DNA of 32,000 bases from an uncultured archaeon (GTDB taxonomy: Archaea; Iainarchaeota; Iainarchaeia; Iainarchaeales; Iainarchaeaceae): contig CAZNZM010000006.1 in the NCBI GenBank assembly GCA_964577555.1, positions 2,979 through 34,978 of the forward strand. Direction: 5' to 3'. Below are positions 1 through 30,688 of the stretch, in pieces; position 1 is the first letter of the stretch, and each line of letters starts with the position of its first letter. Made by a program: the position numbers and the translations under genes. The notes under the pieces are model-generated. The model ran no database searches. It worked only from the letters and a program-made list of their open reading frames with translations, and was not told where the DNA came from.

Positions 1-640
1 AATAGTTTTTTTTTAAGTCATTTTTTTTGTTTTTTTTGAGCCATTTTTTTTGACAATTTTTTTTAATTTTTTGTTTTGTTTGTTTTTGCAAGCCAAGTTT
101 TTTTTGTAGTCATTTTTTTTGTAATTAATTTTGTTTTTGTCTTTTGTTTTGGCTGGTTGTTTTTTTTGTTTTTTTTTGAATAGTTTTTTTTTAAGTCATT
201 TTTTTTGTTTTTTTTGAGCCATTTTTTTTGACATTTTTTTTAGATTTTTTTTTGAACTTTTTTTTTAATTTTTTTTGGCGAGCCATTTTTTTTGTCGTTG
301 TTTTTTTTGTGAGCTGTTTTTTTGGCGTATTTTTTTGTTTTTTTAGTTGATTTTTTTTTGGCAAACCACTTTTTTTTGTCATTTTTTTTGTTGGTTGTTT
401 TTTTTGTGTTTGTTTTGCGAGCCATTTTTTTTTAGATTTTTTTTGAACTTTTTTTAATTTTTTTTGCGAGCCATTTTTTTTAGACAATTTTTGTTTTTTT
501 TGTTTGGGTTTTGTTTTTTTTGTTAGCCGGTTTTTTTGTATTTTTTTTGTTTTTTTGCGACGATTTTTTTTGTCATTATTTTTTTGTTTTTTTTTTGATT
601 GGAATTTGTTTTTTTCTGCTTCGCGTTTTTTGAGCCAATA
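1..640 (+). repeat. T-tract array locus A, truncated by the window start. T runs of mostly 7-9 nt are separated by short words (AATAG, AAGTCA, GAGCCA, GCGAGCCA, AGACAA).
   Basis: Read directly. 1-55 is identical to 179-233. 240-293 is nearly identical to 433-481, differing only in T-run lengths and one G. 412-532 matches 22689-22793, and 466-532 matches 6785-6842. Confidence 0.9.
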
Positions 641-643
641 AAC

Positions 644-655
644 TTTATATATAAA
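644..655 (+). promoter_or_regulatory. TATA-box-like element (TTTATATATAAA) for the pilin-like operon
   Basis: An A/T-alternating box centred about 30 bp upstream of the ATG at 680. This spacing is typical of archaeal leaderless or short-leader promoters. It directly abuts the end of T-array A. Confidence 0.5.
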
Positions 656-679
656 TACTTCTTTTTCCATTTTAAAGTC

Positions 680-1240
680 ATGAAAAGTCAAAGTGGGCAG
701 GAATCCGCGGTTTTCGAGTTGTTGATAGCCATAATTGTAATGGGGTTTGTAATACTTATTGGCACAAATGCTCTTGAGACTCTTCAACAAAAAACTTGTG
801 AAGGTACTCTGAGCCAAAACCTTGAAGACATAAGAAGTGCAATAGAAACAGTTGTGAAAACCAAGGGCAAAGCCCAAGTAAGGTATGAACTTCCAAGTTG
901 TTTTAATCAACAAGAAAGTTCTTTGAGGATAATTGAAAGGCAAAGCGCAACTTTTTGCAGTGCTATTTGCGAAGGCACTATGAAAGAATGCACTGTATTG
1001 CAATTTACTTCGCCAGGATACAGCGAATCAAAATGTCTTCATATATCTTCTGCAACAAACTTTCCTGATGGCGAGCCTTGTAATAAGGACTTGCTTCAAG
1101 GAGGAAATTATAAAATTGTGAATTGGCGTTCCAAAGAAGGCATACTCCCTGGAAATTATATTCTTATGAGAGAATCATCTATTTTCCTTAAAAGCCCGGT
1201 TATTTGTGTTTATCAACGCGACTACGGGACGGTGAACTAA
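680..1240 (+). CDS. Type IV pilin-like protein with a class III (prepilin) signal peptide
   Basis: Internal ATG of ORF 599..1240. The N-terminus MKSQSGQESAVFELLIAIIVMGFVILIG has a short polar leader, a G-Q, and then a roughly 20-aa hydrophobic helix carrying an early Glu. The mature part is Cys-containing and secreted-like. The upstream part of the ORF lies inside the T-array. Confidence 0.7.
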   Translation: MKSQSGQESAVFELLIAIIVMGFVILIGTNALETLQQKTCEGTLSQNLEDIRSAIETVVKTKGKAQVRYELPSCFNQQESSLRIIERQSATFCSAICEGTMKECTVLQFTSPGYSESKCLHISSATNFPDGEPCNKDLLQGGNYKIVNWRSKEGILPGNYILMRESSIFLKSPVICVYQRDYGTVN

Positions 1241-1905
1241 TGCTTGGTTTCATTCTCAGCAAACTTAATTTGTTGATTTTGGTTACTTCAATATTTGCCA
1301 TAGTTTCATTTTTTGCATTAGGCCTTGGCGATATTACAAAAGTCAAGGAAGCAGGAGAACTTGCCACGAAATCTGTCGAAAAAGCCGCATCCATTGCAAA
1401 CAGCCCGGCTTCATGCGAAAGTTCTTATTTTCCTTTTCCTAGACAACTTAGGACTGCTGGAAGCAACTTCTATTATGTAGTAAAAATATCTAAGGGCGAA
1501 ATACAACGTGAAGGGAATAAAATTAATATTCTAATATTTGCAGTTTATCCGCGCGAAGAGGTCAAGAAAAAGTTTTTGTCATCATCTTATGTTCCAAAAG
1601 CAATTGCTGCTGACAGTTTCAGAACTAATTCAGATATATTTCTTTATGGGCTTGATTATCGCGGTTCTGGTTATATCGGGAATATAAGTGATGGTGTTTT
1701 ATCACCTCCTAACGAAATTTATATTGACCCACAAGCAGAGAACCCTATGAATGCACTGGTTTTGGTTAAAGAAGTTCAAGACGGCAAGAAAAAGTTTCAT
1801 GTTATTGGCTGTGAAGGAACAAGTTGTAACGCATACAAAACCCAAATAGGCAGTTTGGTTCATCCTGGAACTTCATTAAATCCTGAAGGTGGTTTTTTAT
1901 GCTGA
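1240..1905 (+). CDS. Pilus-associated or minor-pilin-like protein with an N-terminal hydrophobic helix
   Basis: The ATG at 1240 overlaps the upstream TAA (TAATG). The N-terminus is MLGFILSKLNLLILVTSIFAIVSFFALGLG. It is operonic with the pilin-like genes. I recognise no domain. Confidence 0.6.
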   Translation: MLGFILSKLNLLILVTSIFAIVSFFALGLGDITKVKEAGELATKSVEKAASIANSPASCESSYFPFPRQLRTAGSNFYYVVKISKGEIQREGNKINILIFAVYPREEVKKKFLSSSYVPKAIAADSFRTNSDIFLYGLDYRGSGYIGNISDGVLSPPNEIYIDPQAENPMNALVLVKEVQDGKKKFHVIGCEGTSCNAYKTQIGSLVHPGTSLNPEGGFLC

Positions 1906-2405
1906 ACAAAGGATTCATAGGCCCGGTTGGCGACGACATGCCTTCTCTTACGCCGTTGATTTTTGGCTTGCTCATGTTTTTTGGAGCCTTTACAACAGCT
2001 TTTACTTCGTTCAACCAAAGAAACTCGGATTTTTCTTCAGACATAGAAGTTCTGAAAATATCGAAACAATTGGAGTCAAATGGATATATTTACAGTTATG
2101 AAAACTTTCAGGATTTATGCAATCAAATAAATTCAACTAATATAAAATTCATGGCCGCCATAACTTCAGAAGCATTTGAAAGATCGAACAAAAGTACTAT
2201 TTTTGAAATAGTTTTTTATGGTACACCCAACAAATTCTATTGTACAAATTTTGAATCAGCAACACCAAATCCTGAACAATTCAAAGACATAATTGATATT
2301 CCAAATCTTTCTCAAAAAAAAGTGGTTTCAAGAGTAATTCCAATTGTTGTAGAGGATAACAAAATAGCTAAACCAATGCATTTGATGGTGATAGCGTGGA
2401 AATAA
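1899..2405 (+). CDS. Small membrane-anchored or secreted protein of the pilin-like operon
   Basis: The start overlaps the upstream stop (ATGCTGA). The N-terminus MLNKGFIGPVGDDMPSLTPLIFGLLMFFGAFTTAF has a K-G followed by a hydrophobic segment. This is a less canonical class III signal. Confidence 0.55.
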   Translation: MLNKGFIGPVGDDMPSLTPLIFGLLMFFGAFTTAFTSFNQRNSDFSSDIEVLKISKQLESNGYIYSYENFQDLCNQINSTNIKFMAAITSEAFERSNKSTIFEIVFYGTPNKFYCTNFESATPNPEQFKDIIDIPNLSQKKVVSRVIPIVVEDNKIAKPMHLMVIAWK

Positions 2406-3220
2406 AAAAAACAAACCAAAAAGGCCAAGCAGCGGTAACAGACGCTCTTTACTTTTTGATGATTGTTACTTTCCTTTCAATTTTTCTTTTCGGCTTCGGC
2501 AACACTTATGGAAATTCTGTAAGGTCTGGAATATCTGATGAAGCTGACACTTCGTTTGTAACCAATGCACTAAAATCCATACTTTATAGTTCCACTCCTA
2601 GAGATACAAAACAATCAATATCAGATCCAAACGTTGAAATAGATTCGTTGCTTGCATTAATAAAAGAGGATTATGCGGATGATGAAACCATAGGCTCGGA
2701 AGAGCGCGAAGTTTTCGCAAAAACAATTTCTTCAATAATGTCTCCAGTTCAAGATACAAAGGATTACATATTGACACTTTCAATACCTCCAGAATCGGGC
2801 AGAAGTTCAAAATACATATTCGTTTTCATTCATACTACAAATTTTTTGCGTGAAAGAGCATTTGACAAATATGGAAAGCTTCTTCCAAAAAGTTTTGCAT
2901 ACTATAAGCCGGATGAAGCCAAACCACACATTGATTATTTTTGCGGCTTGAATAATTCTGACTTTGCCCAAATCCATAATAACATAAAAAAATTGGTTGC
3001 TAATGTTGGACCTACTTCTCAAGCATCAGCATCAATAAAAATGATAAAACACGCTACTTTTTTGGAAAAATACAACGCCCAAATAGACCTTATAGTGTGG
3101 GATGCAACATGGCTTGGAAAAACAGACGACGTGGCTGACGGAATTTTATACGATTCTGACCCAAAATCACCTTATGCTGATTGGGGTTGTTTAGAAGCAG
3201 GGACGACAAAACTTCCATGA
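2396..3220 (+). CDS. Type IV pilin-like protein with a class III signal peptide (KGQAA motif)
   Basis: A GTG start overlaps the upstream gene by 10 nt. The N-terminus is MEIKKTNQKGQAAVTDALYFLMIVTFLSIFLFGFG, with a basic leader, KG/Q, then a hydrophobic helix. Confidence 0.7.
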   Translation: MEIKKTNQKGQAAVTDALYFLMIVTFLSIFLFGFGNTYGNSVRSGISDEADTSFVTNALKSILYSSTPRDTKQSISDPNVEIDSLLALIKEDYADDETIGSEEREVFAKTISSIMSPVQDTKDYILTLSIPPESGRSSKYIFVFIHTTNFLRERAFDKYGKLLPKSFAYYKPDEAKPHIDYFCGLNNSDFAQIHNNIKKLVANVGPTSQASASIKMIKHATFLEKYNAQIDLIVWDATWLGKTDDVADGILYDSDPKSPYADWGCLEAGTTKLP

Positions 3221-6113: not shown

Positions 6114-6653
6114 ATGCCTGTTTCAGTGTTTGAAGTAATATTTGGTTCTATTGTGTCCTTGCTAAAGGGAAGTTTTTTTGTTGCAATTCCTCTTTTTTTC
6201 TTGATTTTGCTTGGTTCGATCATAAGAAAAAAAATTGAGAAAGAACTCAAATGGAATTGGATTTTTAGCGCTTTTTTTACCACTTATTTTATATGTTCAA
6301 TAGGACTTATTTTTGTTTATTTTGTCCCGGTTATAGAATCGCTTCGCGAACAATCGCTTGGCGAAATACCTTCTACTGTTGCCATTTCCTTTGGCACGAT
6401 TGTTTTGGCATTTCTTTATAATGCGTTCAAAGTGTTTTTTTCAGCACTTGTTCTTTCTTTGCTTTTAATGCCGTTGGAACTTGTTGGTCTTTACATGCAT
6501 TCTTTCTTTTTGCAAAAAATGAAAAAAGCTCCGAGAATTTTAGTGTTGGCTCTTACTGTTTATGCAATTTCTATTTTTTCCTCTTTTGTAATTCTTTTTA
6601 TAATCCCTGAATCAGTAGTCGGTTTTATTTACTTGCTTTTTTTCGGTTTTTAG
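6114..6653 (+). CDS. Small polytopic membrane protein (about 5 TM), function unknown
   Basis: 179-aa ORF of hydrophobic segments separated by short basic loops. It is divergent from 4363..6084 across only 29 bp. No peptidase A24 (prepilin peptidase) Asp motifs are seen. Confidence 0.65.
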   Translation: MPVSVFEVIFGSIVSLLKGSFFVAIPLFFLILLGSIIRKKIEKELKWNWIFSAFFTTYFICSIGLIFVYFVPVIESLREQSLGEIPSTVAISFGTIVLAFLYNAFKVFFSALVLSLLLMPLELVGLYMHSFFLQKMKKAPRILVLALTVYAISIFSSFVILFIIPESVVGFIYLLFFGF

Positions 6654-6654
6654 A

Positions 6655-6985
6655 ATTTATTTTTTGCGTTGCTTTTTTTTTAGTTTAAAATAAATACAAA
6701 TTATTTTTTTGTCTTTGGCTTACTTTTTTTTGCGAAAGATTTTTTTTGTTGCTTCTTTTTTTTAGTCGGATTTTGTTTTTTTTGGTGAGCCATTTTTTTA
6801 GACAATTTTTGTTTTTTTTTGTTTGAAGTTTTGTTTTTTTTTCATTTTTTTGTGAGCAGTTTTTTGATGTTTTTTTGTCAGATTTTTTCTTTTTTTTGTT
6901 TTTTTGATTCAGAATTAACTATTTTTTGCGATACGATTATTTTTTTTGTATTTTTTGTCAAAAACTTTTTTGTTGTTTTTTGGTC
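6655..6985 (+). repeat. T-tract array locus C, between two + strand genes
   Basis: It contains the core copy GGTGAGCCA-T7-AGACAA-T5-G-T9-GTTTGAAGTTTTG-T9 at 6785-6842, matching 466-532. Same orientation as the other loci. Confidence 0.85.
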
Positions 6986-7107: not shown

Positions 7108-10100
7108 ATGAATAGAAAAACTGCATTTTCAATTTTATTCGTTTATTTATTTGTTTTTCCATTAATTGGAGAGCCGGTAATTGCAAATTCTTATAATATG
7201 CCTGGAAAGAATGGCTTTGTTGCACAATTTGCTGAGCCTTCAGAAGTCCCTATTGGCCCTGCTTGTTTTTCAAAGGTTCTTTCACCGCAAGAAGCCCAAA
7301 ATGTTATTGATTTGTTGAAATCAGGTTATACTGGAAAGGAAATCAAAGGCAATACTCTTCCAGATGATGACAGGAAGTCTCTTGATAAAGACAAAATTGT
7401 CGTGCAGGATCCTAATAATGAAGAAAAAGCTGTCAAGGTAAGCGTTCCAAATAAAAAATTCAAGCCGGAAGAAGCCTCGCCTTTTTTGAATAATATTCTA
7501 AAAGGCCCTTTCGCGTTAGGTGTTGTTCTTGAAGATTCTTTGAGAGCAGGAGTGTGCAAAGACCCAGATTTGCCTGCTTGTTCTTTAACCAATAAAAATC
7601 TGAAATACAGGAATTCTGGATCAGGAATTATTGCCGATTTAAAACCCATGAAAGAAGCAATAGGCGAAATATATTCAAAATGGTTCAGCGGCGAAAAAGA
7701 CATAAACGGATTAACCAAAGTTGAAAACGAAGCAATTAGGGAAGCCATGAGGGAAGCCACTGATGAAACCCAAGTAAAAAGCGCGAAAAGGCTTGAAACA
7801 ATATTAATACCAAATTCAATACTTTCCGATTGGTTTGAAGCCAAAATGCAAAAAAATTGCATGAATGATGCTTGTGTTATAAGCACTTATTCATTGTTTG
7901 ACAAATATTTCAATTCATGGATGTCAAGCGAAATGGTAGTATCTACTTTTGGGCCTTCTTTGCTATACCAAACAAGGAAACTTTTTAATTGGACAGGAGC
8001 AAGAGGCTACTTTTCAGGAGTAAGGGAAAAATATCAAGAACTACTTGACCAAATAAGAGTGAAACTTATTCAACCAGAACAGCATCTTTATAAGTCACTT
8101 GTAAAAAAAATAAATACAAAACTTGACAAGTATCCAGGTTGGAGAGACTGGTGGTTAAAAACTATTGGCGGTAATCCTGATGGTACTGGGTATTATATTT
8201 TCAAAACTGAAGCATTTCAACATTGGTGGGGGGAAGTATCAAAATCAGGAGGTTTTTTGTCTCACATTAAGACTTTGGAGCAAAAAGCCGAATTTGTAAG
8301 AATGCTCAAAGACATGCGTGCATTAATGAGGGCTGGTTTGGCTGATGTTAAAGCCGCCAGACAAGAATATGCTAAAGCATATGATGCTGCAAGAAAATCA
8401 GGAATCGAGTATCCATTGCAAGATCCTTTTGTAAGAGAGAAATATTTGAATTATGGGCGTAAGATGATAACTTATATGAATGATTATTATGATGAAGGTT
8501 TGGGTGCTGATTATATAGAATGGATTGCAAGGTATAATTACGTTGCTTTATTTGATAAAGGAGTAAGATTTTATGCTCCTGACGGAAGCAGTGAAATAAT
8601 TGATTTGTTCAGAGACCACAGAAACTTAAGACAAATATTGTTGAAACTAAGAAATGATGGTACTTTCAAAGATTTTGAAAAGTATATTGATAAATATTCA
8701 AGTATTTTTGAAACAAGAGGCGATAACCTTGTGCTTTATACTTTTGACCCTAATCAAATCTCCAGTTCTCAAGGTTTGTCTTGGAGCAATATAAAAGCCG
8801 CGGCTCCTTCAGGGACAAGAAAAAGGGTTTTTATACGTGATGATACTGGAAGGGCTATCCCATATAATTCATCTTCTGCAACTTTCATACAAAACAGGCT
8901 TTCAACCAACGCTCAAGTTCTTGAAGGCAATTGGAAAGAGTATGGTGAATTAAGTCCAATTGACATGATTTCAAGGATTGACAACGCGAGAACAGGCACA
9001 AATGCAAATCTTGCATTTGGAGTTTATAACATAGAACAAATGCTCACCTCATTGAAATCCAGAAATTGGGTTTCAAGAAGATATTGGAATGCATTGGATA
9101 AATTGTTTGCCCAGGAAGAAGAGCTTGTAAGAAGCTATTTTACTTTTAAGGGAGGAGCAAGGCTCACGGCATTGCCATTTGCTTATTGGTGGGCAAAAAA
9201 AGGTTTTGGCGAAGAAGGATTAAGCATGTATATGCTGCCTGATACTTGGCACGATTTGAAGTTTTCAATTGGAGAACATCCAATTTATCACTACGCATAT
9301 ATAGACTTTTTTGCAAACGAAGGTTCTGACCAAGGAGACTTGTTTATTCAGGTTTTGAACAAGCTACCTTGGAAACTTGTGCTTGATGAATTATCAGAAA
9401 AATACAATCCTATAAAAAACCTTTATGATGCTTTGACAAAAAACGAGCTTAGAAGCGAAACCGAAAATTTGGCGTTTTATCTGACAGGCGACGATGAATG
9501 CGTTGATTGTACAATGGTTGTGAAAAGCCAAAACATGAATGATTTTAGGCCATTCTTTTTTGCAGGCAACAGAAAAATAGATTCTTACATAATTGAAGAC
9601 ACTGTTACTGAAAAAGCAAGGAACAAAGGGCAAACATTAATAGCTTTTGCAAGCCACACCAATCTTATAGGAAAAAGCGGCGGCAAAGAAGGCGAACCCA
9701 TAGACCTGGTCAAAACCATTGAAGGAAAAACAAAAGAAAAAACCTGCAAAGAAGCTGTTGAAAACCTTGAATTTGCTGGAGTGAAGTTTGGCAGAATATA
9801 CAATGCAATAACCCCTGATTTCAAAAATAAAAGTTCAGGAATAGGATTTATGTTGGGAGGCTTGGAAAGCATAACTTATGGCGCATTTTTTTGGGCAGGA
9901 ATTTTCAGCACTATTGCAATACAAGTTGCCGTGGCACCACAATTAAGCGGTTGTGTAGATGCTGAACAGGGTTATTACGCGCATTACTTTGCTCCTGTTA
10001 AAGAAACCAAAAACAAACAATCCAATTCGGTTGAAAAGTCAACTGAAAAAGTTTCAAAATTAGTAAAAGACTTCAAAGAAAAATTTGTAGACAGTTTCAA

Positions 10101-11631
10101 GAGCGATTCTTCAAACCCTGTTACAGAAGTCGCAGAAAACCTTGGAAATGAACTTGACAATTTAGTAGGCAATGCAAAGGACAATGATTTAGTTCAAGCA
10201 AACCTGAAATTGCAGGGTATGAGTTCAGGTCAATTATTTTCTAGGGAACTTTTTTATGTTTGGTGTGGCGAAGGATGTGAAATAGGAGCCGCAACTTATA
10301 AACAACAAGGCTCTGAAAAAGTTGCAGGAGTTAATGGAAGCGAAGTAGGAATAGACTTTGCAAAAGGCGAAATAAATGAAAACGGAAATAAACCCATAGT
10401 TTCAAGCCCTGACAATGTAAGACTAATCAATACCAACCTCAACATACCTGCAATTGAAATACCTTACACAGTAACTGAGGCTTGCCTCAAAAATACAAAC
10501 AACATAGTTTTTGAAATTAGTGCACAAGGCAATGTAAAGGTGCTTGACAAGGAATTATTGGATTGCCTGCAAAAAGGAGTGCTTGATCAAACAGGATTAA
10601 ATTTTACTTCAGACATTCTTAATGATGTTTTCGGCAACCTTGATGTGATTGTTACTGACACTTATCCAAACATCAAACCTTTTGACGATAGAATAATAGC
10701 AGAAGGAGTGCCAAGAAAAGTTGTTGAAGGAAAAAACACAAAAATTACGATATCTGCTAATAAAGATGTTAATCTGAATACTATTTCTGGAAGCCCCATT
10801 TTTGTAGGAAAACTCCAAAGTTTGCATTTTGCCAACGGTTCAATTGTTGTAAAACCCAATGGATGTTTCCTTACATGGTTAAAGCACCATGAAAATGCAA
10901 TACTTAACAAGGATGATGTTACAGGGCTTTCCACAAAACTTAAAAGGGAAATGAACGAAGAAACAGGCTGTGAAGATCCAGTAATAGATTTCAAAGTTCT
11001 TGCAGACCCAAATTCAGATTTAAAAATTGCAAAAGTTGACAGCTTTAATAAAGCCTTGGAAAAAGTCGGACCTTTCACTGTTTTTGAAACGCCAACAAAG
11101 AGATACATTATTTCCGCAGAAAAAGGACCTGATGGAAAATGCAGAGATCATTTGCGCGTTATAGATAAAGAAACAGGAAAAGTAACAGATTATGTAGGCG
11201 AAATAGCACAAACACCAAACGGGCTCACCATAAAAACCGATGACGGCCAAACCCACACAATAGAATTCGGAGAAAAAGACGGAGCCCCGACAATTTCGTT
11301 TGATAAAGGAAAACCAGAAAATCTTATTTCCGCACAAGGAAAAAACGGCTCTTTCTATTACGACCCAGAAAAAGGATTATGGTTCGCCGAAAACGCCCAA
11401 TTATTGCCTTTGATTGAAGCATTCCGCGAAGGAATAGCAGCCAAAGTAGCGCCAAACGGCGAAGTCACGGCTACTGCACAAGGCAACGTGCTAAACGTTG
11501 ATTTAGGCAAAAAAGACCAACAACTTTTGGATTTGCCATCGCTTCCAGAAGCAAAATACTTGATACTAATAATATTCTTGGCTCTAATCGCAACATTTTA
11601 TGTTTCTTCCACAAAAAACAAAAAACCCTGA
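7108..11631 (+). CDS. Giant orphan secreted / surface-anchored protein (1507 aa)
   Basis: Uninterrupted 4.5-kb ORF. The N-terminal signal-like segment is MNRKTAFSILFVYLFVFPLIGEPVIANS. The C-terminus is LPSLPEAKYLILIIFLALIATFYVSSTKNKKP (TM helix plus basic tail). I recognise no domain or internal repeat. Confidence 0.85.
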   Translation: MNRKTAFSILFVYLFVFPLIGEPVIANSYNMPGKNGFVAQFAEPSEVPIGPACFSKVLSPQEAQNVIDLLKSGYTGKEIKGNTLPDDDRKSLDKDKIVVQDPNNEEKAVKVSVPNKKFKPEEASPFLNNILKGPFALGVVLEDSLRAGVCKDPDLPACSLTNKNLKYRNSGSGIIADLKPMKEAIGEIYSKWFSGEKDINGLTKVENEAIREAMREATDETQVKSAKRLETILIPNSILSDWFEAKMQKNCMNDACVISTYSLFDKYFNSWMSSEMVVSTFGPSLLYQTRKLFNWTGARGYFSGVREKYQELLDQIRVKLIQPEQHLYKSLVKKINTKLDKYPGWRDWWLKTIGGNPDGTGYYIFKTEAFQHWWGEVSKSGGFLSHIKTLEQKAEFVRMLKDMRALMRAGLADVKAARQEYAKAYDAARKSGIEYPLQDPFVREKYLNYGRKMITYMNDYYDEGLGADYIEWIARYNYVALFDKGVRFYAPDGSSEIIDLFRDHRNLRQILLKLRNDGTFKDFEKYIDKYSSIFETRGDNLVLYTFDPNQISSSQGLSWSNIKAAAPSGTRKRVFIRDDTGRAIPYNSSSATFIQNRLSTNAQVLEGNWKEYGELSPIDMISRIDNARTGTNANLAFGVYNIEQMLTSLKSRNWVSRRYWNALDKLFAQEEELVRSYFTFKGGARLTALPFAYWWAKKGFGEEGLSMYMLPDTWHDLKFSIGEHPIYHYAYIDFFANEGSDQGDLFIQVLNKLPWKLVLDELSEKYNPIKNLYDALTKNELRSETENLAFYLTGDDECVDCTMVVKSQNMNDFRPFFFAGNRKIDSYIIEDTVTEKARNKGQTLIAFASHTNLIGKSGGKEGEPIDLVKTIEGKTKEKTCKEAVENLEFAGVKFGRIYNAITPDFKNKSSGIGFMLGGLESITYGAFFWAGIFSTIAIQVAVAPQLSGCVDAEQGYYAHYFAPVKETKNKQSNSVEKSTEKVSKLVKDFKEKFVDSFKSDSSNPVTEVAENLGNELDNLVGNAKDNDLVQANLKLQGMSSGQLFSRELFYVWCGEGCEIGAATYKQQGSEKVAGVNGSEVGIDFAKGEINENGNKPIVSSPDNVRLINTNLNIPAIEIPYTVTEACLKNTNNIVFEISAQGNVKVLDKELLDCLQKGVLDQTGLNFTSDILNDVFGNLDVIVTDTYPNIKPFDDRIIAEGVPRKVVEGKNTKITISANKDVNLNTISGSPIFVGKLQSLHFANGSIVVKPNGCFLTWLKHHENAILNKDDVTGLSTKLKREMNEETGCEDPVIDFKVLADPNSDLKIAKVDSFNKALEKVGPFTVFETPTKRYIISAEKGPDGKCRDHLRVIDKETGKVTDYVGEIAQTPNGLTIKTDDGQTHTIEFGEKDGAPTISFDKGKPENLISAQGKNGSFYYDPEKGLWFAENAQLLPLIEAFREGIAAKVAPNGEVTATAQGNVLNVDLGKKDQQLLDLPSLPEAKYLILIIFLALIATFYVSSTKNKKP

Positions 11632-11765: not shown

Positions 11766-12470
11766 ATGCATTCTGGAGGTCATGGAAAAAAGCTTCCAAC
11801 TAGTGCTCCCAAAATTTTTTTCGAAGAAATTGGCCACGAGGTTGGGCATTTTGTTAAGGGTAGTTTGAATCTGTTTGGAAAATTATTTAATCCATTTGGG
11901 GTAGTTGTTTCAACTTTAAATGCAATAAAGGCAGCGAGATGCAACCAAGAAATAAACAACTATTTTGAAAGAATTGAAAGAAAAAGTGGATCTAGCATAT
12001 CAGTTAAAAAAGCTACAGGAATATTTTCTCACCCTCAATTTAAGGAAATGCTTACCCCATCAACTAATACCCATTTAGAGATTGAAAGATCTCATCAATA
12101 CTTGTTAATATTGCAAAGTATAATAGAAAAAAAACCGCAATTTGCACAAAAAATTGAAGAAATTATTCCAAAACAACAAAGAGAAGCAGTATTAGGGTTT
12201 TATACCGATAGAAGAAATTTAATGGATAAAAAGAGAGAACTTGATAATTTTGAATATCAGCTTTGGCAAAAAACAAGAGCTCATAAAGAAATTAGCCATG
12301 AAGAAGAACACCATTTTTCAAGACTTGTTACAGAATTTTATGAACTTCAAAAAAAATTTCTTAGCCATTTTTCTTACCCGCAAGATTCTTTAATTGTTTC
12401 AGGCTTTGGTGCATTGCAAACAAGAAAAAATCAGCTTGATAAAATAATCCAAGAAAGTTCAAAGCACTAA
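11766..12470 (+). CDS. Hypothetical soluble, helical, His-rich protein
   Basis: 234-aa ORF with ordinary coding composition, no signal peptide, and no motif I recognise. Confidence 0.55.
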   Translation: MHSGGHGKKLPTSAPKIFFEEIGHEVGHFVKGSLNLFGKLFNPFGVVVSTLNAIKAARCNQEINNYFERIERKSGSSISVKKATGIFSHPQFKEMLTPSTNTHLEIERSHQYLLILQSIIEKKPQFAQKIEEIIPKQQREAVLGFYTDRRNLMDKKRELDNFEYQLWQKTRAHKEISHEEEHHFSRLVTEFYELQKKFLSHFSYPQDSLIVSGFGALQTRKNQLDKIIQESSKH

Positions 12471-12606: not shown

Positions 12607-13488
12607 TTATATTGGGCCTAATTCTTCCACATCTTCTATGCAACTTTGCGCTTCTTTTCCAGCTTTGTAGCACAATTGTTTGTTTCCAGTGTTGTAGGCT
12701 ATCCATGCTATACAATTGTCTCTTGTTTCAACCAGATTTTCACAAATTTCAGGATTATTTGTTGTCAACGCGATTTCGAAAAAACAATTTTCTTTTATTT
12801 GTGGAATTCTTACTTTATTACACAATGAAGGTGAATTTGTGTCGGTTGCAACAGAATAATAACAATAATTGTCTAAGGTCATTATATTTTGGCACAATTC
12901 AGAATTATTGTCAAATATTGCTTGTACACAAAGCCTTCTGTCATCGCCTTCAGCACAATTATTGGGGTTTTTCGTTTTATATGCTTCATAACATTGCCTT
13001 ACTTCATAATCCCCCCAACTGCAAAGACTTGCATCGCCGCTATTTATTGCTACATCAATATAGCATTGTGAAACTCCAAATTTTACGTTTTCACAATACG
13101 ATTTTTCCCCTGTTAATTGGGCTATACGCATAAAACAATCACTTCTGTCAGTAATGTCATTTATACTGGAACACCCGGCAGGGTCTCCACTTATTGCAGC
13201 ATATGTCAAATAACAATTGTCCCTTGTTTCAATTGACTTTGCAAGGCAATCCGAGAGTTTTATGGGAATAAAATAATTGAAGTCTTTTGGTTTTTCGTTT
13301 CTGATTTGGGCTAAAGGCGCTTCATCCATTAAATATTCTTCCAAAGGATATTCGTCCCCGTTAACTTTTACGGTTTTTTCATAAGAAGGAATAGGATTTA
13401 CTTTTGGCTGGTTTATAAAAAAAATTATTCCCAAAACCAAAACAAGAATTATTGGCACCGCCAGGAAAATCATCAATTGTTTATTCAT
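12607..13488 (-). CDS. Secreted or membrane-anchored Cys-rich repeat protein
   Basis: N-terminal anchor MNKQLMIFLAVPIILVLVLGIIFF, followed by about 8 tandem units of roughly 24 aa, each with two Cys (e.g. DNCYLTYAAISGDPAGC, SDCFMRIAQLTGEKSYC, ENCFFEIALTTNNPEIC, DNCIAWIAYNTGNKQLC). Confidence 0.8.
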   Translation of the reverse strand: MNKQLMIFLAVPIILVLVLGIIFFINQPKVNPIPSYEKTVKVNGDEYPLEEYLMDEAPLAQIRNEKPKDFNYFIPIKLSDCLAKSIETRDNCYLTYAAISGDPAGCSSINDITDRSDCFMRIAQLTGEKSYCENVKFGVSQCYIDVAINSGDASLCSWGDYEVRQCYEAYKTKNPNNCAEGDDRRLCVQAIFDNNSELCQNIMTLDNYCYYSVATDTNSPSLCNKVRIPQIKENCFFEIALTTNNPEICENLVETRDNCIAWIAYNTGNKQLCYKAGKEAQSCIEDVEELGPI

Positions 13489-15403: not shown

Positions 15404-16228
15404 TTAGAACCCTTTTATAAAAAAATAAACAATAAAACCTGCTATTAAAAGAATAATCGCATATAAAAATGATTTTTTTGGCCTGCTCTCCTGAAAGCCT
15501 AAAAAAATTGAAGATATAATGGCAAACTCCGCTATGTAAATAATGCTTCCAATTTCTGCAGCATTCAGAAGTTCTTTTCTTGTAACTTCGTTTGCTCCTA
15601 TTCCCAATTCATTTATTCCTGAAAAATCCATTTTGAAAACCATGCTTGTAACCATTGCAAACACAAACGGAACTATTATGCATGATGCTATTATTGTGTA
15701 TTTTTGTAGCGACATTGCAGCCATTCTTTCCCTTGTTATTGAATTTGTTTCAATGAAATCCTCGGCTGTTTCCCTGAATGCTTTGCTCATATCCGCGCCA
15801 GATTTTATTGAATTTATTATCATTCCAATAGACCTTGAAAGCCCTTTTGAAGAATTTCTTTCAGAAATTTTTTCTAGTGCTTCTTCAGGCGGCATTCCTA
15901 ATTCAATTCTGTTTTTCGCCAGATTGAATTCTTTTTTTAATGGGCCATTAGAGTTGTTTGATATAAAATCAACTAGTTTGTCTATTCTTGCATTGTCAGG
16001 AATTGAAGATGCAAGAAGCAACATGTCTGGAATTTCATCTTCTATTTGTCTTTGTCTTTCTTCCTCAGCCAATTGAAACTTCAGATGCTTTAATGCCAAT
16101 GGAATAAATAATGCAATTATTGAAAGCATGATTATTTTTTCGCTTTTAAATATTTCAATCCCGATAATTAAGAATGCTATTGAAAATAAAACACCAGAAA
16201 TAATTTCGTCCTTGCTTGTTTTGAACAT
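15404..16228 (-). CDS. Type II/IV secretion system F-domain platform protein (TadC/FlaJ-like half)
   Basis: 274 aa. N-terminal TM helices precede a cytoplasmic helical domain (IPDMLLLASSIPDNARIDKL...GMPPEEALEKISERNSS...IKSGADMSKAFRETAEDF), followed by C-terminal TM helices. This is a single T2SSF-type domain. Confidence 0.75.
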   Translation of the reverse strand: MFKTSKDEIISGVLFSIAFLIIGIEIFKSEKIIMLSIIALFIPLALKHLKFQLAEEERQRQIEDEIPDMLLLASSIPDNARIDKLVDFISNNSNGPLKKEFNLAKNRIELGMPPEEALEKISERNSSKGLSRSIGMIINSIKSGADMSKAFRETAEDFIETNSITRERMAAMSLQKYTIIASCIIVPFVFAMVTSMVFKMDFSGINELGIGANEVTRKELLNAAEIGSIIYIAEFAIISSIFLGFQESRPKKSFLYAIILLIAGFIVYFFIKGF

Positions 16229-16229
16229 T

Positions 16230-16961
16230 TCAATTTCCTCCTAAAGGAGCAATCGATTTTATGTAAAGCAATATTGCGCAGTCAATACAAGGAAATATGA
16301 TGCTTGTCAAAGCCAAAATCATTTTTCCATTTATTGAAAAATCAATGAATGAACTTCCCACTATTATGAATGAAATTGAAAGCGCAGGAACCACTGCCGA
16401 AATTACTATAAATAATAGTGAAAGTGCGGACATTTTTCCAGTGTATTCTTTTATTTCCGCTTTTTTTCTACTTAACAATTCCATTGCAAGTTTTTTTATG
16501 CCGGAACCTTGTTTTTTTCCTCCGTGTTCATAAATTGAAATTACTTGTGCAAAAGCCCTTTTCACAATTTTTGAATTTGATTTTGCGGCAAATTTGGCTA
16601 GCATTTCTTTAAGCGGTTCACCGGACGCTTTTGCGGATGAAATGCAATTTCCAAGCAGTATTGAAAATTTTCCGTATTTTGATTCGGCAAGCCTTTCCAA
16701 AGCTCTGTCCGGCGGAATGCCTATGTTAAGTTCAAGGCTAAGTTGCATAAGTGCAAAAGGAAGTTGTGCTTCAATTTCTGCTGCATCACGCCTTAATTTT
16801 CTTTCAGTTTCTGTAAAAAAGTAAAAGAATGTTGTTGTCATGCAAATTATTCCTATAATTATTGATGTGTAAATATCGTCAAAGAATAATTCGGACGCCA
16901 AAAACCCAATTATAAAAGCCAGAATTGATTTTTTGAAAGAGCTTTCGATTTTCAAATTCAT
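16230..16961 (-). CDS. Type II/IV secretion system F-domain platform protein (TadB/FlaJ-like half)
   Basis: 243 aa with the same architecture (LPFALMQLSLELNIGIPPDRALERLAE...SAKASGEPLKEMLAKFA...). Its stop abuts the start of the downstream gene at 16228. Confidence 0.75.
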   Translation of the reverse strand: MNLKIESSFKKSILAFIIGFLASELFFDDIYTSIIIGIICMTTTFFYFFTETERKLRRDAAEIEAQLPFALMQLSLELNIGIPPDRALERLAESKYGKFSILLGNCISSAKASGEPLKEMLAKFAAKSNSKIVKRAFAQVISIYEHGGKKQGSGIKKLAMELLSRKKAEIKEYTGKMSALSLLFIVISAVVPALSISFIIVGSSFIDFSINGKMILALTSIIFPCIDCAILLYIKSIAPLGGN

Positions 16962-16967
16962 TTTTTT

Positions 16968-18422
16968 TCAACCTTCATTGTATTGTTGTATTGAATTGAA
17001 GTATTCTTCCCCAGTTTTTCCTCGTAATGTTTCCAAGAATTTGCTTCTTTTTTCAATCTCATTTATTATTTCTTTTTTCGGCATGTTGAAAGAATTTGAT
17101 ATTTTTTCAATCGTTTTTTGTCCAATTGATTTGATTTTGAAAGATTTTTTTTTGAAGTCATAAGAAAAAATTTTTTTTATACAGATTCCATTTTTTGTCA
17201 TTAAAGGCTCCGCTATTTCAATTAGTTTTCTTTGTTCGTAATGTCTTCCTTCTTGGTTAACCGTCCATCTTTTTTGTGTCAACACCAAATCCAATGCTGC
17301 TACATCCATTGGCATTGCCCCTAATTTGATTAACCTTGTTATCGCTTCATTTGCTGATTGTGCATGGAATGTTGAATAAGTTCCTTTTCCTTGCCCGGCA
17401 AGCAAGGAATCTATATAAGCCAGTGTTTCTTTTTTGTCCCTTATTTCCCCTACAATAACCCTGTCTGGTCGCATCCTTAAAGTGTTTGTCACTAGCTCAG
17501 CCATGCCTATTTCTATTCCTTCAGCGGTGTTCATTCTAATACAATGCTGGTGCATGATTGATATTTCCGGTGTTTCTTCAACTATTACAATTCTTTCGTT
17601 TTCCGGAATGAAATTCATTATACTGTTTAACAAAGTTGTTTTTCCAGAACCTGTATTGCCGCACACCATTATTGAGCAATCTGATTGTATTGCAAGCCAA
17701 AGGAAAGCCATTTGTTCAGAGGAAGCGGAGCCAAGCCTTATGATTTCTGTAGGAGTTGGCACGTTTGCCCTGAATTTTCTTATCGTAACAGATGGTCCGG
17801 AATTAGTTATTGGGTTCATGCATGCATTGAGTCTTGAACCGTCTGGAAGGCTGGCATTGATTTTGGGTTTCATAAGAGTCACCCGCCTGCCAAGGCTTGA
17901 ACCAAGCGCATTAACTATGTTTTTGACTTCTTCTTCGCTTGAAAAGTAAATATTGGATTCAAGCCATCCGAAATTCGAGTCAAAGACATAAATTGGTTTG
18001 GCTCTGCCAAGCCCTATGACTGCTATTTCTTCCAGCAACGGATCGCAAAGAAAAACACCAAGTATTCCATGAGAAGAAACCATTTCCGAAAGGCATCTTT
18101 TTAAGTAAATTTTTTGGTTGTCTTCAAGGTCCAGCCATTTTGATTTGCAATATTGTATAAAAAATTCGCTTGCGCCTTTTTCTGCAACAATTTTTCCCGA
18201 ATCCCTGAATACTTGCAATGCCGATTTCAGAAGCCTTGCTTCGTCCAAGCTTAGACAAGGAATTGATTTTTGAATGTAAATAGTTTTTCCGTTTCTAAGC
18301 CTTGTTATGTCCCTTTCTTCAGAAGACGAAACCACTATTTCTATTTCTTCTTCCGCAGGACTGAAGACCCGCCAACCAAGTATTTTCTCTATTTCTGCTG
18401 ATTCAAAATCCGACAAACCCAT
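16968..18422 (-). CDS. Type II/IV secretion ATPase (FlaI/PilB/VirB11 family)
   Basis: Walker A GNTGSGKTT, an acidic box VIVEETPE, and a Walker-B region RMRPDRVIVGEIRD. 484 aa, lying 6 bp upstream of the platform genes. Confidence 0.9.
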   Translation of the reverse strand: MGLSDFESAEIEKILGWRVFSPAEEEIEIVVSSSEERDITRLRNGKTIYIQKSIPCLSLDEARLLKSALQVFRDSGKIVAEKGASEFFIQYCKSKWLDLEDNQKIYLKRCLSEMVSSHGILGVFLCDPLLEEIAVIGLGRAKPIYVFDSNFGWLESNIYFSSEEEVKNIVNALGSSLGRRVTLMKPKINASLPDGSRLNACMNPITNSGPSVTIRKFRANVPTPTEIIRLGSASSEQMAFLWLAIQSDCSIMVCGNTGSGKTTLLNSIMNFIPENERIVIVEETPEISIMHQHCIRMNTAEGIEIGMAELVTNTLRMRPDRVIVGEIRDKKETLAYIDSLLAGQGKGTYSTFHAQSANEAITRLIKLGAMPMDVAALDLVLTQKRWTVNQEGRHYEQRKLIEIAEPLMTKNGICIKKIFSYDFKKKSFKIKSIGQKTIEKISNSFNMPKKEIINEIEKRSKFLETLRGKTGEEYFNSIQQYNEG

Positions 18423-24522: not shown

Positions 24523-25245
24523 TTAATTCCTTTTTACAAGATACTTTTTTAACCCATTTTCTGCTTTTTCAAGCCTTTCGAAAGTATCTGTTGTAAACCA
24601 ATAACCTTTATGCATATACGCTGCAAGTTTCCTTTCCATTGCCAAGGAAGGGAAAGCATTTTTTTCAATCAAACTAAAGCCTTTAGGAATATAATTCAAA
24701 ACCTCTTTTTCAAGCAAATATGCCCCGGCATTCACCCAATTGCTAGGCGCGTTTTCTTTTAACGGTTTTTCAACAAATTCTGCTATTTTTTTTCCTTCAA
24801 GTTTTACCACTCCATAACTTGAAACGTCTTCGACTTGTACCAAGGCTATCGTGGCTTTTGCCTTCTCTTCAAAATGAGTTTTGTGCATTTCAATGAAGTC
24901 AAAATTTGCAATATTGTCCCCATTAATCATTATGAATCTGTCATCCAAAATTTTTTCCGCGCTTTTCAAGGCTCCACCGGTTCCAAGCGGTTCATTCTCC
25001 ACCGAATAAATTATTTTGACATTGAATTGTTCGCCGTTGCCGAAATAATCCTCTATTTTTCCATGCAAATAACCCGTAGCCAAAATAATTTCTTTCACTC
25101 CGTTATTTGCAAGCAATTCAATATTGTATTCCAATATTGGCTTCCCACAAACATTGACAAGAGGTTTTGGCAAATTGTTTGTCAAAGGCTTTAACCTTTC
25201 CCCGCGCCCCCCAGCCAAAACAAAAGCCTGCATTATTTTTTTCAT
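24523..25245 (-). CDS. Sugar-1-phosphate nucleotidylyltransferase (NTP_transferase family)
   Basis: N-terminus AFVLAGGRGERLKPLTNNLPKPLVNVCGKPILEYNIELL plus EPLGTGGAL and INGDNI motifs. Confidence 0.85.
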   Translation of the reverse strand: MKKIMQAFVLAGGRGERLKPLTNNLPKPLVNVCGKPILEYNIELLANNGVKEIILATGYLHGKIEDYFGNGEQFNVKIIYSVENEPLGTGGALKSAEKILDDRFIMINGDNIANFDFIEMHKTHFEEKAKATIALVQVEDVSSYGVVKLEGKKIAEFVEKPLKENAPSNWVNAGAYLLEKEVLNYIPKGFSLIEKNAFPSLAMERKLAAYMHKGYWFTTDTFERLEKAENGLKKYLVKRN

Positions 25246-25487
25246 ATAAATCTGCTAACAAGATTTATTTTTTTTTCAAATACGACAAAATATAAAAAAT
25301 ATAAAACTCTTTCAATACTACTGCTCAAACAAAAAATAATTTTTCCACGCATTTATTTATTGCTTCTACTTTACTTAATAAAAACTTATTGAAAAACCAT
25401 TTCCCATCACACCAATCCATTTATATAAACCAACTAAACTCATTATTTAATTGAAAGCATTTTTTTTCTATTTCAAAGGTCTTTCAA

Positions 25488-26771
25488 ATGAAAATTTCTA
25501 TTATAGGCACCGGTTATGTGGGGCTTGTTGCAGGAGCCTGTTTTGCCGATTTAGGCAACAAAGTTATTTGCGTTGACATAGACTATGAAAAAATCAAATC
25601 ACTGCAAAACGGCATTATGCCTATTTTTGAACCAGGCCTTGAAGAAATGGTTAAAAGAAACGTTTCTGAAAACAGGCTTTCGTTTACAACCAACCTTTCA
25701 GAAGCAGTTAAACAATCTGAAATAGTATTTATTGCAGTAGGCACGCCTGAAAAAGGAGACGGCAGCGTTGACATGCAATATGTTATCAAAGCCGCTGAGG
25801 AAATCGGAAAGGCGGCCAATGGTCCTTTAATTGTTGTTGATAAAAGTACAGTACCTGTTGGCACTTCAACCCAAGTAGAACAAATAATAAGTAAAAACAC
25901 AAAGCACAAAGTTTCAGTTGTCTCTAACCCGGAATTTTTAAGAGAAGGCTCCGCTATAAATGATTTTTTCAAGCCAGACAGAATAATAATAGGTTCAAAA
26001 GATGAAAAAGCCGCAAAAACAATTTCAGAACTCTACAAGCCATTGGACACTGAAATGCTCATTACAACCCCAGAAAGCGCCGAATTAATAAAATACGCTT
26101 CAAATTCATTTCTTGCTACAAAAATTTCTTTCATAAACGAAATTGCAGCTATTTGCGAAATAGTAGGGGCTGATGTAACAGAAGTAGCAAAAGGAATGGG
26201 GCTTGACAAAAGAATAGGAAAACATTTCCTCAACGCAGGCGCAGGTTATGGCGGATCGTGTTTTCCAAAAGATGTAAGCGCACTTAAAAAAACCGCGGAA
26301 AAACTCGGTTACAACTTCAAAATACTTGAAGCAGTAGAAACGGTAAATGAAAATCAAAAAAAATTGCCTGTAAAAAAACTGAAAAAAGAAATACCTGATT
26401 TGAAAGGCAAAAAAATAACGATTTTTGGGTTGGCATTCAAGCCAAACACCGATGATATGCGAGAAGCAAGCTCCATAGTAATAATAAAAGATTTGCTTGC
26501 GGAAAAAGCAGAAGTCGTTGCAGTTGACCCTATAGCCGAAAAAAACGCCAAAAAAATTTTTCAAAACATAACTTTCTCCAAAGACCCTTATACAGCTGCA
26601 GAAAACTCCCATGCAATTATTCTTATAACAGAATGGCGCGAATTTCTCGAATTAGATTACAAAAAAATAAGCCAAAAAATGAAATCCAAAATAATAATTG
26701 ACGCCAGAAATGCACTTGACAAAGAAAAACTAAAATCTTTGGGATTCAAATATATTGGCGTAGGAAGATAA
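25488..26771 (+). CDS. ugd: UDP-glucose 6-dehydrogenase
   Basis: N-terminal Rossmann MKISIIGTGYVGLVAGACFADLGNKVICVDID, NPEFLREGSAI, the catalytic-Cys motif GYGGSCFPKDV, and GLAFKPNTDDMRE. Confidence 0.92.
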   Translation: MKISIIGTGYVGLVAGACFADLGNKVICVDIDYEKIKSLQNGIMPIFEPGLEEMVKRNVSENRLSFTTNLSEAVKQSEIVFIAVGTPEKGDGSVDMQYVIKAAEEIGKAANGPLIVVDKSTVPVGTSTQVEQIISKNTKHKVSVVSNPEFLREGSAINDFFKPDRIIIGSKDEKAAKTISELYKPLDTEMLITTPESAELIKYASNSFLATKISFINEIAAICEIVGADVTEVAKGMGLDKRIGKHFLNAGAGYGGSCFPKDVSALKKTAEKLGYNFKILEAVETVNENQKKLPVKKLKKEIPDLKGKKITIFGLAFKPNTDDMREASSIVIIKDLLAEKAEVVAVDPIAEKNAKKIFQNITFSKDPYTAAENSHAIILITEWREFLELDYKKISQKMKSKIIIDARNALDKEKLKSLGFKYIGVGR

Positions 26772-26772
26772 A

Positions 26773-27516
26773 ATGAAAGCGATTATACTTGCCGCAGGAT
26801 ATGCTACAAGGCTTTGGCCCCTCACAAAAAACACGCCAAAACCATTGCTTGACATAAAAGGCAAGCCTATAATAGAATACATAATAAATCACATTCTTGA
26901 AATTCCGGAAATAAATGAAATAATTGTAGTAACAAACGAAAAATTTTCCCTTACATTTGAACAGTGGGCCGATGGCTTCAAATGTAAAATACCAATAACC
27001 ATAATCAACGACATGACTACTTCAAATGACGACCGCTTAGGCGCTGTAGGAGACATGCACTACGCCATCAAAGAAAAAAAAATTGACGAAGAAATACTTG
27101 TCATAGCAGGAGACAATCTTTTTGAATACAAACTCTCAGGCTTTTACAATTATTACAAAAAAATAAAATTTTCCGCAGTGGCTTGCAGAGACATGGGTTC
27201 AAAAGAAGAAGTAGCCGGAAAATTTGGAATAGTTGAAATAGACCAAAAAGGCAAAATAACAAATTTTGAAGAAAAACCACAAAACCCAAAAACGACACTG
27301 GCTTCAACAGCATGCTACATTTTCACCAAAGAAGACGTAAAAGAGATACAATCGTTCATTGAAGCCGGAAACCCGCCAGACAATTCAGGGGACTTCATAA
27401 AATGGCTGTCGCGCCACAAACCAGTATACGCTTGGATATTCAAAGAAAAATGGTATGACATAGGAACATTCGAAAGCCTTGGAAAGGCAAGAATTGAGTT
27501 TTTGCAAAACAGATAG
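26773..27516 (+). CDS. Sugar-1-phosphate nucleotidylyltransferase (second NTP_transferase paralogue)
   Basis: N-terminus MKAIILAAGYATRLWPLTKNTPKPLLDIKGKPIIEYI. It starts 2 nt after the ugd stop. Confidence 0.85.
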   Translation: MKAIILAAGYATRLWPLTKNTPKPLLDIKGKPIIEYIINHILEIPEINEIIVVTNEKFSLTFEQWADGFKCKIPITIINDMTTSNDDRLGAVGDMHYAIKEKKIDEEILVIAGDNLFEYKLSGFYNYYKKIKFSAVACRDMGSKEEVAGKFGIVEIDQKGKITNFEEKPQNPKTTLASTACYIFTKEDVKEIQSFIEAGNPPDNSGDFIKWLSRHKPVYAWIFKEKWYDIGTFESLGKARIEFLQNR

Positions 27517-27528
27517 AGAGTTGGTGGC

Positions 27529-28227: not shown

Positions 28228-28263
28228 TTCCAATTAAAAATTCTATTTTTCCTTATTGATTAA

Positions 28264-30521: not shown

Positions 30522-30688
30522 ATCAAGCATATGCCAAAAATTCAATTCAAATAATTGGTGGTTGACAATATAATATAAACATTCAAAAAAATTTTGCAAA
30601 TGCTCTTTTTGATAACCAAACCAAAACAATGTTTTTTTGTTTGCCTTTTATGGTAATATTTTTATTATGATAAAATGGTGTTATTAAC

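Follow-up and report, generated by a model that had tools for sequence, protein, structure and literature searches.

We analyzed a stretch of 32,000 nucleotides (hereafter, the window) from an uncultured archaeon of the Iainarchaeota (GenBank assembly GCA_964577555.1, contig CAZNZM010000006.1; C6:2979–34978 in our numbering), and in particular the gene at 7108–11631 of its plus strand, which opens with an ATG codon and encodes P0001, a conserved surface protein of 1507 amino acids (hereafter, the giant protein). Its open reading frame (ORF) is the longest in the window, the runner-up encoding 573 amino acids. The amino acid composition is ordinary, with 197 Asp and Glu residues against 186 Lys and Arg, and Tandem Repeats Finder reports no repeat within the coding sequence; it does report T-tract arrays upstream, at 6740–6899. 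These arrays have units of about 21–36 nucleotides and fill the 454-nucleotide gap between the gene of a 179-residue membrane protein and the giant gene. The protein contains 16 Cys residues, including the close pairs 150/158, 251/256, 798/801, and 1053/1057, and nine of the Cys are invariant in an alignment of 35 relatives.

Residues 1–27 (7108–7188) form a predicted Sec-type signal peptide, with a hydropathy peak at residues 5–25. The N-terminus consists of MNRK, TAFSILFVYLFVFPLIG, and EPVIA, followed after the predicted cleavage site by NS, and resembles substrates of the Sec pathway and signal peptidase I. In the alignment, homologues carry AxA-type sites at the corresponding position, ending, e.g., in AFA, AYA, or ANA; judging from the sequence, the signal peptide is probably cleaved. 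Checks of ORFs, repeats, composition, and hydropathy thus agree with the initial annotation of this DNA, which had described the longest ORF of the window as non-repetitive, normal in composition, and endowed with a signal-like N-terminus and Cys pairs.

Distribution of the family

The initial annotation also called the protein an orphan, and this does not hold: it has 89 relatives in a protein collection clustered at 90% identity, nearly all of 1450–1650 amino acids and 28–90% identical to P0001. Those that are named bear only the label "hypothetical protein" and come from Candidatus Diapherotrites or from an "archaeon." In the phylum, for which the source names give Candidatus Diapherotrites, 148 of 151 sampled genomes contain a match to the family, as do all 55 high-quality ones; the three genomes with no match are only 79–83% complete. 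Where one genome yields several matches, these are fragments of a single open frame, so that there is mostly one locus per genome. A search of 1.84 billion representative sequences yields no more than 158 proteins that match the family at E ≤ 0.001; the family is thus restricted to its lineage and yet universal there.

The most distant matches are 1200–1660 amino acids long, and the two that carry an organism name, P0186 and P0197, belong to Candidatus Micrarchaeota. A genome scan with an alignment of the distant relatives identified 12 loci in Micrarchaeota, including Norongarragalinales. Comparison of the Diapherotrites and Micrarchaeota families by hhalign gives a probability of 100% and E = 2e-46, with the alignment restricted to residues 1007–1507 of P0001, and the N-terminal head does not align to the Micrarchaeota relatives in the profile–profile comparison. 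Hence, a membrane-proximal module and the tail are common to the two families, and the distal heads are different.

Predicted structure

No match to P0001 was found in Pfam, NCBIfam, or the PDB sequences; a profile of 35 family members has no credible match in PDB, and six distant members contain no Pfam domain. The match of this profile to PDCD10 in PDB, with E = 0.004 over a helical stretch, was taken as noise. AlphaFold models were built from alignments of 80 sequences. The model of residues 960–1507 (m9050a10a9cdc) has a predicted local distance difference test score (pLDDT) of 82.8, exceeding 90 in the core, and that of residues 1–1010 (mee484048a32a) has a pLDDT of 78.9. Foldseek comparison of both models with PDB, and of the N-terminal model also with BFVD, returned nothing meaningful (TM-score ≤ 0.11, probability ≤ 0.38); weak beta-propeller matches with root-mean-square deviations above 17 Å were discarded. 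The earlier description of a secreted, C-terminally anchored DPANN surface protein with no recognizable domain is supported.

In the N-terminal model, a disordered stretch (residues ~28–56) follows the signal peptide and leads into the head (residues ~60–908; 7285–9831), which consists of an alpha/beta region (60–262), a long helical bundle (263–475), and a second alpha/beta region (485–900). The head is followed by a conserved hydrophobic, Gly/Phe-rich segment of 38 residues (909–946; 9832–9945), modelled as one helix, in which G913, E920, Y924, G931, and Q939 are present in at least 90% of relatives; it is followed by the invariant C949-x-D951 and G955-Y956. This segment contains a third hydrophobic stretch (residues 924–944, Kyte–Doolittle hydropathy 1.7), absent from the initial annotation. 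The C-terminal module (residues ~1007–1460; 10126–11487) is modelled as a helical hairpin (979–1026) and then an all-beta region (1050–1459). It is connected by a variable linker of Gly and polar residues (~1461–1475; 11488–11532), with pLDDT below 50 and variable alignment columns, to the conserved motif L-P-S-L-P-E (1476–1481; 11533–11550). The model assigns residues ~1463–1479 to a disordered Gly-rich linker. The membrane helix (about residues 1483–1502, Kyte–Doolittle hydropathy 2.16; 1483–1504 in the model) and the basic tail KNKKP (together 11551–11628) complete the protein.

The hydrophobic helix 909–946 raises the question of whether the giant protein is a membrane-active machine. The helix would then enter either the membrane of its own cell, making the protein polytopic, or that of a partner cell, and the protein would serve in contact, fusion, or pore formation. 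The hydropathy of the internal segment, its five conserved positions, and the prediction of a single long helix beside long helical bundles are all compatible with this role; however, conserved Cys residues on either side of the helix argue for extracellular flanks, the helix may be merely buried in the fold, it lies outside the region alignable with Micrarchaeota, and no viral or cellular fusion or pore-forming protein in PDB or BFVD matches the fold. We regard such a role as highly improbable.

The C-terminal tail

The C-terminus of P0001 ends in LDLPSLPEAKYLILIIFLALIATFYVSSTKNKKP, and the tail, LDLPSLPEA-KYLILIIFLALIATFYV-SSTKNKKP, is identical to that described in the initial annotation. 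It has three parts, the motif LPSLPE, the hydrophobic stretch YLILIIFLALIATFYV, and the basic cluster KNKK, and the same layout is seen in all 35 aligned relatives, all of which have basic clusters at the C-terminus. Within the motif, P1477 and P1480 are invariant, and S1478 and E1481 occur in at least 90% of relatives, while the preceding linker is variable; no short element beside this linker is better conserved than the consensus, [LIV]P-S-x-P-E with a hydrophobic helix and basic cluster after it. The layout of a sorting signal, proposed earlier, is supported, together with strong conservation of the motif; the motif is not LPXTG.

The motif has several variants. Family f5 has NIPL[TSA]PE (e.g., IPLTPE), relatives at the class level have LPLFPQEP or LPWWPENP, and Micrarchaeota, in which only the last ~500 residues align, have LPSWPE, LPSFPE, or LPAWPE. 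Many relatives read PExP before the helix, as in LPENP, LPEEP, and LPEQP.

A hidden Markov model of the tail, applied to all ORFs of the genome that contains the window (hereafter, the source genome), selects P0001 alone (E = 2.6e-11; the next match has E = 0.15). The tail profile was also run on the 55 high-quality genomes of the order; in 54 of them, it matches strongly nowhere but at the giant protein's own C-terminus, and the weaker matches cover the helix only. Among curated CTERM models (PGF-, PEF-, PEP-, VPXXXP-, Loki-CTERM, and others), none reaches its cut-off on the tail, the best being Loki-CTERM with 14–16 bits (cut-off 19.9).

A second type of three-part tail, [AV]PEI[ND]PLL followed by a helix and basic residues, was observed in the source genome at the ends of a 1450-residue protein with a weak PKD-like match (C7:48513–52865, minus strand) and a 195-residue protein (C8:43135–43722, minus strand), and at the end of one protein of genome G028 (locus L029), which belongs to a different family. 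A back-translated PEI[ND]PLL pattern has five matches in the 55 genomes, three of them at C-termini. As a phylum-wide signal, this tail was rejected as too sporadic.

Archaeosortase genes

The source genome contains two archaeosortase genes, both outside the window: paralog A (C1:48929–49192, plus strand) matches PF09721 with 41 bits and TIGR04178 with 46 bits, and paralog B (C5:62251–62856, minus strand) matches TIGR04178 with 36 bits (at C5:62263–62511), the TIGR04178 cut-off being 23 bits. Both are short, about 160–200 amino acids. In eight archaeosortase ORFs from six genomes of the phylum, the Cys, Asn..Arg, and His residues are invariant. Neither paralog reaches the cut-off of a named subfamily (ArtA to ArtF, pace-, and heimdallarchaeosortases); the best scores are with ArtD, 33 and 23 bits where 125 are required.

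Paralog A was found in 135 of 151 genomes by a search with a single sequence, and the family model detects archaeosortase genes in all five checked genomes that this search had missed. Paralog B is present in 54 of the 55 high-quality genomes. Two archaeosortase genes are also held by each of five Micrarchaeota genomes with a giant gene, there off the giant gene's contig.

The initial annotation had left open a classical sortase, and this option fails on two counts, since the source genome has no match to PF04203 and the motif reads LPSLPE rather than LPXTG. It had further suggested a search for an archaeosortase, and was prepared to take the anchor for a plain membrane helix if no other protein shared the motif and no sortase-like enzyme was encoded. 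No other protein with the tail exists in the source genome or in its 54 relatives, but two archaeosortase-family genes do; since the enzymes are present, the idea of a sorting signal survives this joint test.

Paralog A lies directly downstream of the gene for CDP-archaeol synthase (CarS, PF01864, E = 1.5e-45) in the source genome and in G001, G002, G013, and G015; in these five genomes, the two genes are on the same strand with gaps of 3–90 bp. In the proposed ArtA reaction, the lipid joined to the protein derives from CDP-archaeol (PMC7157517). At C1:48132–49233 of the source genome (860–1962 of locus L001), the CarS and paralog A ORFs overlap on the same strand, and SecD is convergent. The genome also contains one CDP-alcohol phosphatidyltransferase gene (C3:61530–61787).

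Paralog B is linked to the giant gene. The two are on one contig in 24 high-quality genomes and 2–21 kb apart in 21 of them; in 18 of these 21, paralog B is upstream and divergent, at 11–20 kb from the giant gene, and it is distant solely in G005, G013, and G037. In the source genome, paralog B is on contig C5 and the giant gene on C6, and synteny joins the end of C5 to the start of C6; paralog B, divergent from the giant gene, thus lies 17.3 kb or more upstream of it, the usual arrangement. The pairing of CarS with paralog A and the linkage of paralog B to the giant gene are new findings on the context of these genes.

Gene neighborhood

A block of about 16 genes around the giant gene stays colinear in three distant loci (L025, L027, and L028) as the identity of the giant protein falls from 45% to 29%. 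It comprises, in order, a pilin-like operon of four genes, genes for a zinc-ribbon protein, a Lys/Glu-rich membrane protein, the 179-residue membrane protein, and the giant protein, then PAC2, two T2SSF genes, and a T2SSE gene; PAC2 is missing from one of the three compared loci. The pilin-like operon (599–3220, plus strand) has no Pfam match, and its products are 23–49% identical to those of the three loci. The type IV pilus-type assembly genes, two T2SSF and the T2SSE ATPase (15404–18422, minus strand), were identified with Pfam and are colinear in all three. A second T2SSE/T2SSF pair lies further upstream of the block. At the end of contig C5 (about 64.8–69.9 kb), a T2SSE gene, a 785-residue T2SSF-like gene, and a 148-residue gene continue into the start of C6, as seen from synteny with L025 and L028; the two contigs are thus neighbors, and the block of surface genes extends about 10 kb further than is visible in the window.

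This arrangement suggests that the giant protein might work within the type IV pilus-like systems encoded by the flanking genes, e.g., as an envelope-spanning base, an adhesin, or a filament anchor, a possibility that concerns its role and not its anchoring. Besides colinearity with the pilin-like operon and the assembly genes, and the additional T2SSE/T2SSF pair upstream, it is favored by the rate of divergence of the giant protein, about the same as that of its pilin-like and T2SSF neighbors. However, the same block carries the unrelated housekeeping genes PAC2, HisRS, and MscS, the signal peptide is of class I and not of the class III pilin type, and the assembly genes are on the opposite strand; on balance, a pilus component seems unlikely.

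At every locus examined, the giant gene is immediately preceded, on its own strand, by the gene of the 179-residue polytopic membrane protein (6114–6653, plus strand). The latter protein is 25–29% identical across loci, with an invariant E122 in the context P-L-E (alignment A5), and may be a partner of the giant protein. Alignment A5 contains no invariant Cys or His, and Pfam gives no match; for these reasons, the idea that the protein is a hidden dedicated sortase was rejected.

Several other genes of the window were noted. A secreted or anchored protein of 293 amino acids, composed of two-cysteine repeats (12607–13488, minus strand), has no Pfam match and is kept at the same position in an AR10-like locus with 31% identity. 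The ORF of 234 codons just downstream of the giant gene (11766–12470, plus strand) matches nothing in Pfam and is missing from the three syntenic loci; it either is lineage-specific or is not a gene. About 13 kb downstream of the giant gene, a cluster for sugar activation and transfer (24523–31630) contains genes for two nucleotidyl transferases, a UDP-glucose/GDP-mannose dehydrogenase, two GT2 glycosyltransferases, and a methyltransferase.

Discussion

We propose that the giant protein is a core envelope protein cleaved and lipid-anchored by an archaeosortase, and put the chance of this at about even. The protein would be exported by Sec, its signal peptide removed, and almost the entire body of 1450 residues would come to lie outside the cell, with the membrane-proximal, beta-rich module of ~500 residues common with Micrarchaeota and the distal head of ~900 residues specific to the phylum. 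The element [LIV]P-S-x-P-E, ~20 hydrophobic residues, and a basic cluster would together make up a sorting signal for archaeosortases that is new. Either paralog A or paralog B would cut at or near the motif and then link the protein to a lipid of the archaeal membrane, as happens with ArtA and the PGF-CTERM proteins of Haloferax. Cleavage, lipid attachment, and the choice of the acting paralog are what we infer here, beyond the directly observed conservation and distribution of the family, uniqueness of the tail, presence of the enzymes with their catalytic signature, and gene context. As the bearer of the sole strongly conserved three-part C-terminus in 54 of 55 genomes, the giant protein, itself universal, is the most straightforward client for an enzyme that is universal too. 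Conservation of the motif in two phyla, the CarS operon, and the linkage of paralog B lend further support to the sorting idea, still unproven.

The closest known parallel is ArtA with the PGF-CTERM proteins of Haloferax volcanii, whose main client is the S-layer glycoprotein. Substrates of ArtA have a motif, a hydrophobic domain, and positively charged residues (PMC7157517). Like them, the giant protein is a large Sec-exported surface protein with a short motif, a hydrophobic helix, and a basic cluster at the extreme C-terminus; its genome encodes archaeosortase-family enzymes whose Cys and Arg are conserved, and these are genetically connected to the synthesis of archaeal phospholipids, in this case through CarS directly upstream of paralog A. 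The differences are that the motif is [LIV]PSxPE and not PGF, with no match to the PGF-CTERM model, that both paralogs are short and fall below every named subfamily cut-off, that each genome encodes one client where Haloferax has several, and that a search for phosphatidylserine decarboxylase (PssD) found none.

With the bacterial exosortase/PEP-CTERM system, the giant protein shares a Pro-Glu motif directly before the helix, and the enzymes belong to the same superfamily (PF09721, TIGR04178); however, the lineage here is archaeal, the PEP-CTERM model does not match, and there is one client, whereas PEP-CTERM proteins usually occur in large sets per genome. The Loki-CTERM, pacearchaeosortase, and heimdallarchaeosortase systems (NF033507, NF033505, NF045528) are similar in that a lineage-restricted archaeosortase variant goes with a tail of its own. 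The similarity is below threshold, with 14–16 bits for Loki-CTERM as given above, 27 bits for heimosortase (cut-off 130), and 19 for paceosortase (cut-off 80), and the motif differs. The system is best filed as one of the archaeosortase/C-terminal-signal type, attached to a protein family of unknown fold.

A number of observations weigh against archaeosortase processing. Known single-client sortase systems are usually adjacent to their client, and here the enzyme genes are not adjacent to the giant gene. Housekeeping genes (HisRS, PAC2, and MscS) are part of the neighborhood, so simple synteny may explain why paralog B is linked. Both the giant protein and the archaeosortases are near-universal, with no joint losses visible among the genomes scanned, hence their co-occurrence cannot discriminate between readings. 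PssD (PF02666) was not found in the source genome, which is 95.5% complete, so these cells may lack the ethanolamine lipid that acts as acceptor in the Haloferax model. Finally, the motif is eroded in some lineages that retain archaeosortase genes: f22 has IPLFEG and IPLTG, f26 has LPSLGE and LPLLEP, and the motif is lost in one genome of f29.

The erosion of the motif and the non-adjacency of the enzymes also favor the alternative that the giant protein is a plain type I membrane-anchored surface protein, with the helix retained, LPSLPE serving as a conserved juxtamembrane hinge or contact site, e.g., for the 179-residue membrane protein, and the archaeosortases serving other clients. Further points that favor this explanation over lipid anchoring are that the tail occurs once per genome, that none of the curated CTERM models matches it, that the 179-residue membrane gene is directly upstream at every examined locus, and that the PEI[ND]PLL-type tail, recurring on other proteins, may be the true client signal of one archaeosortase paralog. 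However, a plain anchor does not readily account for a motif kept in two phyla though the linker varies and the N-terminal 1000 residues are unalignable, for a layout that matches archaeosortase substrates exactly, or for the persistence of paralog B nearby in 21 of 24 genomes. We therefore hold the plain anchor to be possible but, overall, rather doubtful.

Whether the giant protein is the main envelope or S-layer-type protein of these cells is a further and weaker proposal, which we consider less likely than not. It is secreted, falls within the range of 40–200 kDa, is acidic to neutral, membrane-anchored, and conserved in its lineage, all of which are general properties of S-layer proteins, and the analogy with the Haloferax S-layer glycoprotein and ArtA is attractive. 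Other findings speak against an S-layer role. No S-layer domain is detected in P0001 by Pfam or NCBIfam, and PF07752 is absent from the source genome; N-X-S/T sequons number 7, with 11.1 expected; and the giant protein is as tightly conserved as machinery genes, with many invariant Gly, Cys, and aromatic residues. There is also another candidate for the envelope or S-layer protein, a CARDB-domain protein of 409 amino acids that is conserved in 51 of the 55 genomes of the order. In the source genome, it is encoded at C11:17713–18939 (minus strand) and has a signal peptide and a C-terminal helix with a basic tail. Because of the missing S-layer domain, the few sequons, the tight conservation, and this alternative, we use only the term "core envelope protein."

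In a sister DPANN phylum, SLP_Mh of Candidatus Micrarchaeum harzensis is a large, abundant surface protein conserved within its phylum, of about 101 kDa, with recognizable S-layer domains, many predicted glycosylation sites, and a predicted hydrophobic element at the N-terminus (bioRxiv 10.1101/2021.04.28.441871). The giant protein is likewise a large surface protein conserved in its phylum; unlike SLP_Mh, it lacks an S-layer domain and is poor in sequons relative to expectation. Its Micrarchaeota relatives (1200–1660 amino acids) appear to differ from SLP_Mh, being set apart by their size and by having no S-layer domains.

A broader interpretation would have Diapherotrites and part of Micrarchaeota share a three-part envelope system, in which the giant protein is the main contact or fusion device of these archaea with small genomes and not a passive coat. 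It would combine a surface protein of unknown fold, with a membrane-proximal module of ~500 residues and a "PSxPE-CTERM" signal; short archaeosortases that make up a class of their own, one of which shares an operon with CarS; and a lineage-specific head whose 38-residue hydrophobic helix would act on the membrane of the partner cell. That all three components should hold jointly seems to us quite unlikely.

To our knowledge, Diapherotrites have no cultured representative, nothing is known experimentally of their cell envelope, and little is known of how DPANN proteins are fixed to the cell surface; a literature search on the Diapherotrites cell envelope returned nothing specific. The giant family is the largest phylum-wide conserved protein lacking a domain, a structural relative, or an annotation, and its confident AlphaFold models with no match in PDB make it a good target for structure determination. 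Its tail, together with two unclassified archaeosortases, provides a concrete and testable hypothesis of anchoring. From a separate lineage, the CarS–archaeosortase operon lends weight to the view that proteins become linked to lipids by the action of these enzymes; if the proposed processing is true, archaeosortase biology would reach beyond haloarchaea and methanogens.

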